Of a DNA stretch of 64,000 nt, positions 1,811-12,247 are shown one piece after another. A program made the position numbers and the translations under genes. Numbering within the stretch: position 1 is the stretch's first letter; each line of letters opens with the position of its first letter. Source of the DNA: Gemmatimonadota bacterium (lineage in GTDB: Bacteria; Gemmatimonadota; Gemmatimonadetes; Gemmatimonadales; GWC2-71-9); the NCBI GenBank assembly GCA_029262195.1, contig JAJCZX010000010.1, positions 67,352-131,351 on the forward strand. Direction: 5' to 3'. Below the pieces are notes generated by a model, which ran no database searches, was not told the DNA's origin, and saw nothing but the letters and a program-made list of their open reading frames with translations.

Positions 1811-1884
1811 GGGCCTGTAGCTCAGTTGGTTAGAGCGCACGCCTGATAAGCGTGAGGTCGGAAGTTCAAATCTTCCCAGGCCCA
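1811..1884 (+). tRNA. tRNA-Ile (anticodon GAU)
   Basis: Folds by hand into a cloverleaf. Acceptor GGGCCTG/CAGGCCC, D arm GCTC-AGTTGGTTA-GAGC, anticodon arm CACGC-CTGATAA-GCGTG (anticodon GAT), variable loop AGGTC, T arm GGAAG-TTCAAAT-CTTCC, discriminator A. CCA is not encoded. Confidence 0.95.
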
Positions 1885-1896
1885 CTCCCGTAAATC

Positions 1897-1934
1897 AAAG
1901 CCACGTCGCGACTTAGCGAAGTGGCTTTTTTTTT
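1897..1934 (+). terminator. rho-independent terminator after tRNA-Ile
   Basis: Hairpin GCCAC-g-TCGC [gactta] GCGA-a-GTGGC followed by nine T residues (1926-1934). Confidence 0.65.
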
Positions 1935-2102
1935 GAACCTCGGGTCGGGTAACAAAATTTTTTGCGGCTGTTGGTACCAGTCGTCAACGAGAAGAGCCAC
2001 CTCCGTGTCAAACTCCACAAGTTACCGATGATGCGAGGCTTTCTTTCCGTGGCGTATCGTTGTATCTTTTTTCCAAGGAAAATTAATACAATAGGAGCAT
2101 GA

Positions 2103-2690
2103 ATGCCTGCCGCTGCGAGACCGAAGCTCAAGCCTGGAAAAGTCTATCGGACCATGGATTTGGAGAAGTACGGAAAGAACGCCCCACGGTTGGCCAAACG
2201 CTTGGTTGGCGAGGGCCGACTGCATCCGTTGGGGCGTGGAATCTTTGTTCACCGGGAAACCAGCAAGTTCGGCGCTCTGCCTCCAAGCAGAGAAGAACTC
2301 ATGCGGGCTTACCTGAACGGCGGCCGTTTCATTTTCTCGGGGCCCGAACAGTGGAACGTACTCAACCTGGGTTCGACGGCACTGTTCGCCTCCCAGCTCG
2401 TTTACAACGAGGCCCGTAGCGGTGAGGTCGAGCTGGGCGGACGGCGTTTCACTCTCAGACGAGTGGCGTTTCCGCAAAACCCCGCCGCCGAGTACTTCGC
2501 CATTGACCTGATAAAGAATCACCGTCAGGCCGGTGTTTCAGTTGGACGAATTGAGAAGGCAGTTAGTAGAGCCGTGGCTGAGGGGCGGCTGAAACCTTCG
2601 GAGTTGAGGCGCAGTGCGAAACGCTATGGCCGCAAGTCCACGGAGACCGTTGTTGAGACGGCAATCTCGCGAGCCATGGAAAATAGATGA
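2103..2690 (+). CDS. abiEi: AbiEi-like antitoxin / transcriptional regulator (type IV TA)
   Basis: 195 aa. AGGAG lies 5 nt upstream of the ATG. The stop overlaps the start of the AbiEii-type gene (ATGA). The N-terminal segment (RLAKRLVGEGRLHPLGRGIFV) resembles the AbiEi antitoxin N-domain. The call rests mainly on this pairing. Confidence 0.7.
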   Translation: MPAAARPKLKPGKVYRTMDLEKYGKNAPRLAKRLVGEGRLHPLGRGIFVHRETSKFGALPPSREELMRAYLNGGRFIFSGPEQWNVLNLGSTALFASQLVYNEARSGEVELGGRRFTLRRVAFPQNPAAEYFAIDLIKNHRQAGVSVGRIEKAVSRAVAEGRLKPSELRRSAKRYGRKSTETVVETAISRAMENR

Positions 2691-3655
2691 ACCCGATTTT
2701 CTTGCATGATGACCCTGAGTTTCGCGAGCTTATCCGTTTGGTCGCTGATAAGAGGAAAGTTTCTGAGGGGATCGTAGAAAAAGATTATTGGGTGACTCAC
2801 GCCCTGTGGTCTTTAAAAGAAACAGGTCTTGAAATCTACTTCAAAGGCGGTACCTCACTATCCAAAGGCTTCGGGTTGATTGAGCGGTTTTCCGAAGATG
2901 TTGATCTTACGATTGGCCGTGGGTCACGTACTGACTTACCTGAACTCGGAAGCCTCAGGAGTAAGACGCCGGGTGCAACGAAAAAACGGCGCGTATTCTT
3001 CGAAGCTCTTTGTGTAGCTATTGATATTCCCGGCACCACGGGCGTCAGGTTGTTGGCTCCCGCCGACGGTCGTTGGATCAGTGTCGAGTGTGAGGCATAC
3101 TATCCGAAGTTGTTCGAGTTGCCAGGAAACCTGCGCCCCTTCGTGCGGCTGGAACCGGGGCTCCGTTCGTGGAAACCTCCTGCGGTGTCTCGCAACCTCA
3201 CGAGCCTGCTGCACGAGCACGTGTTGGAACTGGGACTGGTGGAGCAATATGTTGACAATCGCCCTGTCGGAATGAGCTGCGTGCATCCACTGGTAACTTT
3301 GATCGACAAGCTTGATTCCGTATCGAAGCGTTACGCGAGGGAAGTTTTCGCTCCCGAAGAATTTGCCCGGCACTACGAAGATCTAGCACATTTGATCGAA
3401 GCCGCGGGCCAATTCCCACAACTTAAGGATGAAACCAAACAGGAAATAGTTAACAATTGTTTGAAAGGACGTGAGATCCATTCGACAGACTCGGCATTTG
3501 AGCTACGGGATGCTAAACGCCGTTCTGCCCTGGAAGCCGCACACCGCGAAATTGATCCAATGTTTTGGGGCCCAAGGATTTCGATTGAGGATTGTTGTGC
3601 TCGGATTGTCAAATGGTTAACCAAGAACCCAATCGGTCCGACTTCGGGTAGGTGA
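2687..3655 (+). CDS. abiEii: AbiEii/AbiGii-family nucleotidyltransferase toxin
   Basis: 322 aa. Carries the hallmark FKGGTSLSKGFGLIERFSEDVDL nucleotidyltransferase motif of the DUF1814/AbiEii family. Confidence 0.85.
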   Translation: MNPIFLHDDPEFRELIRLVADKRKVSEGIVEKDYWVTHALWSLKETGLEIYFKGGTSLSKGFGLIERFSEDVDLTIGRGSRTDLPELGSLRSKTPGATKKRRVFFEALCVAIDIPGTTGVRLLAPADGRWISVECEAYYPKLFELPGNLRPFVRLEPGLRSWKPPAVSRNLTSLLHEHVLELGLVEQYVDNRPVGMSCVHPLVTLIDKLDSVSKRYAREVFAPEEFARHYEDLAHLIEAAGQFPQLKDETKQEIVNNCLKGREIHSTDSAFELRDAKRRSALEAAHREIDPMFWGPRISIEDCCARIVKWLTKNPIGPTSGR

Positions 3656-3769
3656 GTGCTAGGAGGGTTACAACAATGTTGCTGCGCCGGTCGACGCCCA
3701 TCGCTGCTATCGTTAGTTTAACATGCGTGAGTCGACGTCCACCGTTGCCCACCGTCGTAAATCGCGGTT

Positions 3770-10503: not shown

Positions 10504-11631
10504 TCAAGGCTGGGAATCGAAGGAAAGGTCCCCCGGTTCATCTTGTGTCAGCAACGACATCAGCCGGGGGTTGATGAACAGCTTCTCTCGTCCCGATTGT
10601 GTGTGTTCGAGCACCCCTGCGTTTGCCAACTCCCTGAGGTATGAAGATGCAGTTTGGCGTTTGGCGATGCCGGCATCTACGACGTTGGAAATGCGGCAAT
10701 AGGGTTGTACGAAAATCAGTTCAACCAATTCGCGACTATAGAACCCCGGGAACCTGTCTCTGGTGAAGCTCGTTGTTTCGACCATCAACTCTCGAATTGC
10801 TCGAATGCGATTTGTGGTCCAAGCTGCGGTTTCCGTCACGGCGGCCAGCATGAAGAGTAGCCAGCCTTCCCAGTCACCGTCCTGTGTTACGGCATTGAGG
10901 AGGCGGTAATATTCTGACTTTTTTGTGATGATGGCGCGGCTGAGGTAAAGGACCGGCAGTTCGAGTAGTCCGGTCTCTAGCAGATAGAGAAGATTGATAA
11001 TCCTGCCCGTGCGACCATTGCCGTCGGAAAAAGGGTGAATCGCCTCGAACTGGTAGTGTGCCACCGCCATACGAATAAGTGGGTCCAACGAATCATGATT
11101 GTGAAGGAACGATTCCCAGTTGGAAAGCAGGTCGCGAAGCAAGTCAGGGCCTTCGGGGGGAGTATAGATCGTATCTCCAGTCGCCTCGTTCATCAGGGCA
11201 GTGCCGGGCACCCGCCTAATCTGCATTTCGCAGCCCTTCAGGACGGAACAGACGTTCACCGCCGTAGCGATTGAGAGCGGTTTCGCCGCGATTATCTCGG
11301 CGCCGCGTCGAAGGGCAGCCCGGTAGCGGAGCGCTTCCTTCGTGGCGGGGTCGGCACCGTCTTCTCTGCCGGGACTTGCAAATTGAAACAAGCGGTCGGC
11401 CGTCGTTACGATATTCTCGATCTCGGAACTGGCGCGGGCCTCCAGAAGCGGGATGGTATTGATGAGCACATCCTGATTGGGCAGGAGAGCACCGGCTTGT
11501 TTCAACTCTGCAATGGCGGATCGTGCGTTGATGCACGCTTTTAGAACGGGTCGCGTTTCCAGGTCAGCTTCCGGCGGCAAACGGGGCAAGTCATTGTAAG
11601 CTCTTTCTGGATAAGGTTTTAGCATGGCCAA
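10504..11631 (-). CDS. Fic-family protein (class II, auto-inhibited) with C-terminal winged-helix region
   Basis: 375 aa. Active-site motif HPFSDGNGRTGR. N-terminal inhibitory motif SSEIEN fits (S/T)xxxE(G/N). C-terminal wHTH-like segment [24 protein letters not shown]. Confidence 0.92.
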   Translation of the reverse strand: MAMLKPYPERAYNDLPRLPPEADLETRPVLKACINARSAIAELKQAGALLPNQDVLINTIPLLEARASSEIENIVTTADRLFQFASPGREDGADPATKEALRYRAALRRGAEIIAAKPLSIATAVNVCSVLKGCEMQIRRVPGTALMNEATGDTIYTPPEGPDLLRDLLSNWESFLHNHDSLDPLIRMAVAHYQFEAIHPFSDGNGRTGRIINLLYLLETGLLELPVLYLSRAIITKKSEYYRLLNAVTQDGDWEGWLLFMLAAVTETAAWTTNRIRAIRELMVETTSFTRDRFPGFYSRELVELIFVQPYCRISNVVDAGIAKRQTASSYLRELANAGVLEHTQSGREKLFINPRLMSLLTQDEPGDLSFDSQP

Positions 11632-11684
11632 AATGAGTTCCTGGATGCGGAAGTGATATGTCGATGCAATCGACGCATCGGGCT

Positions 11685-11724
11685 AACGTGTCGAAATAAT
11701 AAGAAAATTTCGACACGTTGACAA
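11685..11724 (-). promoter_or_regulatory. putative Fic promoter embedded in a perfect 13-bp inverted repeat
   Basis: On the minus strand the promoter reads TTGTCA, 17 nt, TATTAT. The inverted repeat AACGTGTCGAAAT-9nt-ATTTCGACACGTT (11685-11719) spans the spacer and -10. A second inverted repeat, GTCGAT-tgc-ATCGAC, lies in the ~58-nt leader. Confidence 0.45.
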
Positions 11725-11770
11725 GAACTCAGTTTTAGGGCTGGATTTAGCTCCTTCTCGACCTCGTTAG

Positions 11771-11899
11771 CTGGGTGTCGGTCTTACTGTCGGTTAATGT
11801 CGTCAAAGTACGGCATGGAAGAGTCAAACTACGGCATGGCTCGGTCCGAAACGTCGCGGTATACGTTAAGATGCCGTAGTTGGCTGCGTATTGGGCTGG
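11771..11899 (+). repeat. conserved repeat-rich block, copy D
   Basis: Homologous to copies B and C (GTGTCGGTCTTACTGTCGGTTAATGTCGTCAAAGTACGGCATGG...GCCGTAGTTGGCTGC). Confidence 0.7.
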
Positions 11900-12073
11900 C
11901 CTGATATGCGTGAGGTCGGAATGCGAAGGCGAGCATTGTGAGTTGAGCGACTTTGCGCGCTGCAAATTCGCCGCTCGCCTGCACCATTCTGCAATCCCCC
12001 GTTCCACTGCGATACCCAAGTCATCTGATCAGATCAGCGTTTAATCTGCGGCTTCCAAATCTCCCAGACCCAC
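11900..12073 (+). repeat. tRNA-Ile 3'-portion-like fragment D (split)
   Basis: CCTGATATGCGTGAGGTCGG (11900-11919) and AAATCTCCCAGACCCAC (12057-12073) are separated by ~135 nt. The downstream flank (…CGACTTAGC…TTTTATTTTT, 12081-12130) resembles the terminator region after the intact tRNA. Confidence 0.7.
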
Positions 12074-12247
12074 TTCCCGCAAAGTTGAGCTCAGCTCCGA
12101 CTTAGCTCCTGGCAGGGTTTTATTTTTCGTGCCGAAAAGTGGCCTACTGTCGGGGGCTGCTGTCAATTGATTGCCTGCCGTCCCTTGGCTGCAGATGGAC
12201 CCATGCGTTAGTCGGCGTGACGATCCGTTGCCAGGGGGCTGATGGAT

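Follow-up and report, generated by a model that had tools for sequence, protein, structure and literature searches.

In the 64-kb window analyzed here (the whole stretch of DNA, positions 67,352 to 131,351 of contig JAJCZX010000010.1 from a Gemmatimonadota bacterium), an intact tRNA-Ile(GAU) gene is followed by four copies of its 3′ half, fragments A to D, each of which is split at the T-loop. Between the tRNA and the successive copies lie an AbiEi/AbiEii gene pair, an ADOP-family permease gene, a SoFic pseudogene together with miaA and a glycosyltransferase gene (GT2), and an intact SoFic gene. We interpret this array as a decayed accretion of islets, now without an integrase, at attachment (att) sites in the anticodon loop of the tRNA gene, partly amplified by duplication, and consider this reading somewhat probable but far from secure. 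The accretion would span ~1.8 to 12.1 kb of the window, and perhaps extends to 15.3 kb.

The tRNA-Ile gene and its split copies

A first-pass annotation of the window, made from the sequence alone, had described a stand-alone tRNA-Ile(GAU) gene at 1811-1884 trailed by four same-orientation copies of its 3′ part. The tRNA is indeed intact, called as tRNA-Ile(gat) by ARAGORN at 1811-1885 and matched by Rfam RF00005 with 77.9 bits at 1811-1884, and it is the only tRNA called in the window. The four copies are also present, at coordinates within 1 to 2 nt of those first proposed. The features of the array are as follows:

1811-1884, + strand: intact stand-alone tRNA-Ile(GAU) gene
1897-1937, + strand: tRNA terminator, hairpin AAAGCCAC...GTGGCTTT followed by a run of nine Ts (inverted self-match at 1897-1928)
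3769-4025, + strand: fragment A; 5′ piece 3769-3788, 220-nt filler, 3′ piece 4009-4025
6585-6746, + strand: arm U_B, with TGTCRGT and AAGTACG-type repeats and the invariant block TGCCGTAGTTGGCTGC
6747-7040, + strand: fragment B; 5′ piece 6747-6766, 256-nt filler, 3′ piece 7023-7040
7070-7610, − strand: SoFic pseudogene, C-terminal ~180 codons, 93-97% identical to 10514-11055
7615-7720, no strand assigned: probable operator/promoter region P of the SoFic pseudogene, with TGTCGA/TCGACA palindromes, 87% identical to 11642-11718
10160-10307, + strand: arm U_C
10308-10419, + strand: fragment C; 5′ piece 10308-10327 (20/20 identical), 75-nt filler, 3′ piece 10403-10419
10504-11631, − strand: intact SoFic gene, a class II Fic AMPylase and single-gene anti-phage defense (NCBIfam NF046030, PADLOC, Pfam)
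11642-11750, no strand assigned: probable operator/promoter region P of intact SoFic, with palindromes ATGTCGATGCAATCGAC and GTGTCGAAA-N11-TTTCGACAC
11750-11899, + strand: arm U_D
11900-12130, + strand: fragment D and its flank; 5′ piece 11900-11919, 137-nt filler, 3′ piece 12057-12073
15234-15259, + strand: candidate fifth remnant E, GCCGCGGTAAATATTCCCAGGCCCAT, 16/18 to the tRNA 3′ end, lacking both 5′ piece and arm

The 5′ piece of each fragment is a version of the 20-mer CCTGATAAGCGTGAGGTCGG, which spans the anticodon loop, the 3′ strand of the anticodon stem, the variable loop, and the first bases of the T-stem. It occurs on the + strand at 3769 (one mismatch), 6747 (two), 10308 (none), and 11900 (one); shuffled controls predict 0.01 chance matches against the four copies found, and none of 100 shuffles reached five. 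The end of the tRNA, AAATCT(T)CCCAGGCCCAC, follows each 5′ piece 75 to 256 nt further on and terminates at 4025, 7040, 10419, and 12073. This 3′ piece, AAATCTTCCCAGGCCCAC, has one mismatch at 7023-7040, a 1-nt deletion at 4009-4025, 10403-10419, and 12057-12073, and two mismatches at 15242-15259. All of the fragment repeats are in the orientation of the tRNA and are confined to the 15 kb downstream of it, with no further copies found in the 16- to 64-kb part of the window. The segment at 15242-15259, absent from the first-pass annotation, is possibly a fifth tRNA 3′ end, and remnant E also resembles the end of the filler in A and B (CCGCAGCAAATCTTCCC; local alignment ~5 standard deviations above shuffles).

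The left boundary of identity with the tRNA falls at the anticodon loop in every case. In fragment A it begins at the first base of the loop, where TT is followed by CTGATAAG, and the same is true of a related locus in another genome (L012, described below), where CG precedes CTGATAAG; in B, C, and D identity starts two bases before the first base of the loop. The boundary is therefore seen in three unrelated left flanks: that of A, that of the B/C/D group, and that of L012. On the right, ~10 to 15 nt beyond the tRNA end are common to C, D, and the tRNA itself, and the flank of D continues to resemble that of the tRNA, with TYCCGYAAA, the sequence CGACTTAGC (which in the tRNA copy lies inside the terminator), and a run of Ts. 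Sequence CGACTTAGC and its T-run, whose sharing had been noted in the first-pass annotation, are present after the tRNA at 1910-1937 and after fragment D at 12099-12130.

From the anticodon loop the identity block extends to the T-loop, where 75 to 256 nt interrupt it in A to D and 52 nt in L012. In all four copies the tRNA bases AAGTTC, comprising the end of the 5′ strand of the T-stem and the start of the T-loop, are replaced by filler that begins GCRNNGGCG (GCR-NN-GGCG). The fillers are related to one another: those of A and B are 92% identical over 77 nt, those of B and D have GTGAGTTGAGCGACT in common, and the last 40 nt of those of C and D are 85% identical. Fillers A and B each hold a second, degenerate 5′ piece (in A at 3873-3895), and B also contains an internal duplication of ~66 nt. 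Because related fillers sit at the same T-loop position, the fragments appear to descend from one another, and we regard them as paralogues of one ancestral fragment that was already interrupted, not as four separate copies of the tRNA; the first-pass description of independent degenerate copies does not hold in this respect. Tandem Repeats Finder finds no tandem repeat from which the filler could have arisen, and a coding role was likewise set aside, as minus-strand open reading frames (ORFs) in A and B are alike over only ~20 aa and B has stops. We note that the conserved start of the filler (AACGCAAAGGCGGCAACCGCC in C) reads on the minus strand, at 10336-10348, as a GC hairpin followed by TTTGCGTT, and resembles a terminator placed immediately downstream of SoFic. 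Close to the right side of each of the four fragments is the end of a minus-strand ORF, namely ADOP for A, the SoFic pseudogene for B, intact SoFic for C, and a 165-aa ORF without a family match for D.

Fragments B, C, and D are each preceded by an arm, U, of ~135 to 150 nt, with 78-83% identity between arms; A has no conserved left arm. Sitting directly left of the core, the arm carries an invariant 16-mer, TGCCGTAGTTGGCTGC, and three AAGTACG-type repeats, and five of the eight matches to AAGTACGK are inside arms. The motif TGTCGRT was downgraded as arm specific, as this 7-mer is common across the window (44 matches). Together with its neighbors the arm forms a repeated unit of ~1.6 kb, consisting of arm, split tRNA half, SoFic on the minus strand, and region P. 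In the D-unit P runs directly into U_D, and in the B-unit P and U are parted by 2.4 kb carrying miaA and GT2. Divergence within the unit is ~13% at third codon positions of SoFic, 13% in P, and ~17% in the arms. The SoFic pseudogene has suffered two frameshifting 1-nt indels and the deletion of 586 nt of its N-terminal part. Compared with the intact gene, it has 4.4% mismatches at first, 1.1% at second, and 12.8% at third codon positions, a skew indicating that both copies were under purifying selection for most of their divergence.

Cargo genes and SoFic loci elsewhere

The repeats partition the region into segments whose gene content largely agrees with the first-pass annotation: AbiE, the ADOP permease, the Fic remnant with miaA and GT2, and the intact Fic gene were all confirmed, both Fic copies being SoFic. 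Those genes lying outside the repeated unit, and the left flank of the array, are:

1019-1717, + strand: left flank, an 86-aa ORF (1019-1279) followed by a VapC-type PIN toxin gene (1286-1717; Pfam PIN 1e-15)
2103-3655, + strand: segment 1, AbiEi (2103-2690) and AbiEii (2687-3655) (PADLOC 3.2e-48 and 6.2e-47; Pfam AbiEii 3e-21)
4041-6437, − strand: segment 2, ADOP-family duplicated MacB/FtsX-type permease (TIGR03434 729 bits, cutoff 622; Pfam MacB_PCD, FtsX)
7788-9927, − strand: MiaA (7788-8699) and GT2 glycosyltransferase (8692-9927), overlapping as an operon (NCBIfam, Pfam)

The AbiEi and AbiEii genes, an abortive-infection or type IV toxin-antitoxin pair, overlap by 4 nt at 2687-2690. The intact SoFic scores 594.9 bits with NF046030 (equivalog cutoff 550) and 1e-118 with the PADLOC SoFic model, and has the Pfam domains Fic_N, Fic, and SoFic-like_C. 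Its translation includes HPFSDGNGRTGR, which conforms to the Fic motif HxFx(D/E)GNGRxxR, and SSEIEN.

The first-pass annotation had found a housekeeping gene, miaA, unexpected for an island. Its identity as miaA stands at equivalog level (TIGR00174 178.4 bits; cutoff 148.65), but its status as a resident gene does not. The miaA-GT2 pair has a GC content of 63-67% compared with ~55% nearby, and it interrupts an otherwise contiguous P-U block, from ~7720 to 10160. More than 100 homologue clusters of MiaA were found at 77-96% identity, mostly on contigs of 1 to 3 kb, whereas a neighboring core gene, encoding an S9 peptidase, has only six relatives at ≥68%, the nearest of them ≤82% and on contigs of 2.7 to 5 kb. 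The foreign GC content and the great excess of close homologues over those of the core gene make miaA-GT2 look like an imported, widely circulating module, not a resident housekeeping locus, and one that is possibly flanked by repeats. A transposon-type insertion was considered and rejected, since neither inverted ends nor a target duplication are seen at the junctions. Several of the contigs with MiaA homologues are ~2.7 to 2.9 kb long, like the Logan contig of the present locus (2946 nt).

Loci of SoFic homologues with ~70% identity were compared by genomic-context look-up, and one of these, L012, parallels the present array. It lies on a 12.5-kb contig of a Gemmatimonadetes metagenome-assembled genome (MAG; GCA_016209985.1), which has no tRNA, and its SoFic is 72% identical. 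SoFic and its P palindromes are followed there by ~220 nt in which TGTCG occurs five times, then by CTGATAAGCGTGAGGTCGGTAG and, after a filler of 52 nt, by CTACCCAGGCCCA; a strong terminator closes the series. Two genomes, then, have SoFic-bearing DNA whose end meets a tRNA-Ile 3′ half at the anticodon-loop position, and the T-loop is disrupted in each. The T-stem in L012 is GGTAG/CTACC where the window has GGAAG/CTTCC, a compensatory difference suggesting that the L012 fragment comes from another tRNA-Ile allele. A split tRNA-Ile half was seen beside SoFic at 2 of ~12 loci examined. By comparison, the P palindromes (TGTCGA/TCGACA, over ~100 bp) were found upstream of every SoFic homologue examined, at seven further loci from Gemmatimonadota MAGs or metagenomes and on four alphaproteobacterial plasmids, with varied spacing.

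P is probably an operator. On two of the alphaproteobacterial plasmids, both of the repABC type (loci L024, 2489-4476, and L025, 2492-4527; NZ_CP128602.1 and NZ_AP022334.1), SoFic overlaps the start of a gene for a ~300-aa serine resolvase, to which it is translationally coupled, beside repC, and on a Martelella plasmid a tyrosine recombinase and VapBC are encoded upstream of SoFic. Candidates for the P-binding protein are the winged-helix domain of SoFic and a resolvase.

L012 surfaced through the context look-up and not through the pattern scans, for which we used a fragment-plus-filler pattern (GATANGNGTGAGGTCGNNNNGCRNNGGCG) and an arm-plus-core pattern (TGCCGTAGTTGGCTGC...CTGATA...). The scan of GTDB species genomes gave three matches, all chance occurrences in coding regions; JGI metagenomes gave none, and the IMG/VR viral collection gave either none or a chance match in one phage gene family. 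No matches came from scans for tRNA-Ile halves without T54/T55.

Interpretation of the array

Under the interpretation we favor, accretion of islets at the tRNA followed by decay, a tyrosine-type integrase that is now absent from the window would have recombined the att sites of incoming elements with the anticodon-loop core of the tRNA, CTGATAA, with earlier tRNA-derived pseudo-sites serving as alternative targets. Each integration would leave a junction in which an arm of the element is joined through the core to a tRNA 3′ half. Arm U, in which motifs recur, may be the P-arm of one element family, and fragment A may mark where a different element, the AbiE islet, was joined. Since the T-loop interruption is common to all of the fragments, later growth of the array must have used an already broken fragment, either by integration at a pseudo-site or by unequal crossing-over between the arm-fragment repeats, duplicating the block of arm, fragment, SoFic, and P. 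Afterward, the left SoFic would have been truncated, the GC-rich miaA-GT2 pair would have landed between P and U, and the filler would have been changed by indels and internal duplications. We infer the integrase-mediated origin, the order of these events, and the att function of U. A dif/Xer-like core was considered and rejected, as the core does not appear to resemble E. coli dif.

Several features are as expected from this scheme. An identity boundary at the anticodon loop in three unrelated flanks is what a crossover at an anticodon-loop att site would give, and the retention of CGACTTAGC and the T-run by D is expected if D represents the original chromosomal 3′ end. The arm before B, C, and D has the size of a P-arm. 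The AbiE pair, the two SoFic copies, and the flanking VapC gene are typical island and defense content, and miaA-GT2 is foreign in composition. Tandem islet integration, as proposed in the first-pass annotation, is thus supported by statistically significant direct repeats, by their boundary, and by the defense cargo, but not as a textbook series, given the shared T-loop interruption and the duplication-like B-C-D unit.

Other observations weigh against the accretion interpretation. No integrase, excisionase, resolvase, or transposase domain (Phage_integrase, Resolvase, DDE) was found in ORFs of the 1- to 16-kb part of the window, in agreement with the first-pass annotation, which had recognized none. 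Recombinase domains were also absent from the unannotated stretches 12074-13650 and 9928-10310 (X-masked and translated in six frames), from four of six frames of 15045-15860, and from ten further integrase-size ORFs between 28 and 64 kb, although very short excisionase-type genes could escape these searches. The T-loop interruption shared by all fragments is an outcome that simple serial integration into a working tRNA cannot yield, because every fragment would still have been a working 3′ half at the time of its displacement. The similar neutral divergence across the parts of the B-C-D unit (13-17%) fits one segmental duplication without site-specific recombination, and the 5′ piece, with one to three differences per 20 nt among B, C, and D against a background of ~17%, is not clearly better conserved than its surroundings. 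Of seven other SoFic loci examined six were informative, and none of these six has an arm or a fragment; the likeness of L012 could reflect two independent insertions beside tRNA-Ile loci. Finally, independent Logan contigs break inside U and SoFic and so give no separate check on how the segments are ordered across the repeats.

The alternative that survives best, which we nonetheless think rather unlikely as a complete account, is segmental duplication alone. A single ancestral junction of SoFic, P, U, and a broken tRNA half, as in L012, would have been amplified by unequal homologous recombination, with cargo swapped by ordinary insertions and deletions, and beyond the single original event the repeats would not be att sites. 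Arm, fragment, SoFic, and P are homologous and in the same order in the B-, C-, and D-units, with neutral divergence alike throughout, and unequal crossing-over explains these units as well as tandem integration does. The common start of the filler points the same way, and so does its apparent growth through duplications within it, as seen from the additional 5′ piece in A and the 66-nt repeat in B. Fragment A is harder to accommodate, as its core boundary is the same although its left flank, beside AbiE and without U, is unrelated, and the ADOP segment between fragment A and U_B has no homology to the SoFic units. Duplication also leaves the exchange of cargo in need of a mechanism, as miaA-GT2 has neither transposon ends nor a target duplication.

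A more doubtful proposal is that the array consists of integrase-less cassettes, each comprising fragment, cargo, and U, which share a single site, U-CTGATAA-split tRNA half, and are mobilized in trans by an integrase encoded elsewhere. SoFic, miaA-GT2, and ADOP would then be shuffled in and out of an array anchored at tRNA-Ile, and the locus would be a tRNA-based analogue of an integron array, with the T-loop filler as a spacer that the site tolerates or uses. Xer-exploiting IMEX elements would be another analogue. Successive sites are separated by one to three genes, all sites have one orientation, the arm is conserved and includes an invariant 16-mer, no recombinase is found locally, and the arm-fragment combination recurs in a second genome. 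The numerous miaA homologues on short contigs, several of ~2.7 to 2.9 kb, look as if they were repeat-flanked in many samples. However, relatives of the site are absent from the pattern scans of GTDB species genomes, JGI metagenomes, and IMG/VR, miaA-GT2 sits inside the P-U block and is not bounded by fragment and arm, and SoFic is the only type of cargo seen with an arm and fragment elsewhere.

It is highly improbable that the fragments are transcribed divergently from SoFic as genes for a tRNA-derived noncoding RNA, which might for example be a partner of SoFic or of some other toxin, or regulate it. Such a role would fit the fixed place of the fragment upstream of SoFic in two genomes and the terminator that follows it in L012 and, more weakly, after D; fragment B also folds better than its shuffles (z = −4.1). 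Fragments A, C, and D do not (z = +0.46, −1.01, and −0.86, respectively), the anticodon stem, lacking its 5′ strand, cannot form, and the T-stem is not maintained in A to D. There is no Rfam match at E ≤ 1 to A-D and no tRNA or tmRNA call on the fragments, no convincing promoter lies upstream of the fragment, six of seven informative SoFic loci are without one, and the filler of 52 to 256 nt has no alignable core. With no Rfam match, no shared fold, and only B stabler than shuffles, we set aside the fragments as structured RNAs. A T-box-like or antisense leader for SoFic was rejected as well: a promoter-like site on the minus strand in the P region of SoFic, at 11724-11696, lies between fragment and gene, and the complementary blocks are in the reverse of the T-box order.

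Misassembly, in which repeat units were wrongly joined or over-collapsed in a contig from a metagenome bin, is the least credible explanation. The independent Logan contigs do end within U and within SoFic. However, a divergence of 7-22% between copies, along with large indels, marks them as distinct loci and not duplicated reads, and the junctions P/miaA, GT2/U_C, SoFic/P/U_D/fragment D, and D-to-E are each matched at 100% in independent contigs, one of them in three samples.

The present locus is most likely a decayed, tRNA-anchored island array, a known kind of genomic island, although its copies have odd features. A passage in PMC4383910 describes how an island integrating into a tRNA gene (tDNA) regenerates the target gene, with the displaced fragment marking the end of the island. 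Like such Islander-type islands and their tandem arrays, the present locus has an intact tRNA at one end, same-orientation repeats of the 3′ part downstream, identity that starts in the anticodon loop, and accessory and defense cargo. It differs in having no integrase, in its segments of just 1.6 to 3.3 kb, and in fragments that are interrupted at the T-loop by related filler and are paralogous to each other. In the tRNA-anchored islands of Prochlorococcus, partial tRNAs occur scattered among degenerate remnants of elements, and successive integrations of tycheposons at one tRNA push older elements inward and leave cargo modules behind (10.1101/2020.12.28.424599). Partial tRNAs, degenerate remnants, and left-behind cargo are all seen here too, but the Prochlorococcus islands keep identifiable integrases or pieces of them and their partial tRNAs are uninterrupted, and the present array has no tycheposon hallmark gene.

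There are also parallels with integron arrays and clusters of attC sites lacking integron-integrases (CALINs), in which short gene cassettes each carry one site-like repeat in one orientation with no recombinase nearby. The present sites, in contrast, are tRNA derived with an arm of ~135 to 150 nt and have no attC hairpins with R″/R′ boxes; there is no IntI or attI here, and some of the cargo genes carry their own promoters. When the fragment ends were tested for attC-like pairing, they paired only through GGCCTG/CAGGCC in B to D, and not in A or L012, giving no consistent hairpin. The SoFic gene itself corresponds well to known SoFic defense, matching the equivalog and PADLOC models and having catalytic and inhibitory motifs, but this names the cargo and not the repeat system.

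If accretion at the tRNA is the correct interpretation, the locus exemplifies a small defense and accessory island that persisted at a tRNA after loss of its integrase, and whose att remnants then seeded further duplication. T-loop-split tRNA halves in two unrelated genomes and the widespread GC-rich miaA-GT2 hint at mobile units. These would escape island finders, because such programs rely on an integrase and an uninterrupted tRNA fragment.

Neighboring genes and minor observations

To the left of the tRNA, the 86-aa ORF at 1019-1279 that precedes the VapC-type toxin gene has no family match in Pfam or NCBIfam, and is putatively the antitoxin by its position alone.

SoFic toxicity and an antitoxin, AS1, encoded downstream of E. 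coli SoFic have been described (PMC12249575). A 48-aa ORF with a TTG start (10361-10507, minus strand) overlaps the SoFic stop codon by 4 nt and crosses the 3′ piece of fragment C. Its size and position are those of AS1, a likeness of placement only, and it is not conserved after the SoFic pseudogene. Small ORFs after SoFic at two of the homologous loci (L013 and L019) were considered as AS1-like antitoxins and rejected, as they look, by sequence reading alone, like N-terminal remnants of methylases. A 14-nt tandem repeat, ACCGCCTTTTTCTA (3.6 copies), occupies 7763-7811, covering the 3′ end of miaA and the downstream spacer.

Between fragment D and a sigma-54 activator gene (13644-15044), the ~1.5 kb at 12074-13640 contains overlapping ORFs of 100 to 165 aa and has no Pfam or NCBIfam match in any frame. 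Further right, a Logan contig from SRR15505513 (L011) ends at ~15198, ~45 nt before remnant E, which could reflect either low coverage or a structural variant at E; a contig from SRR15505516 reads through.

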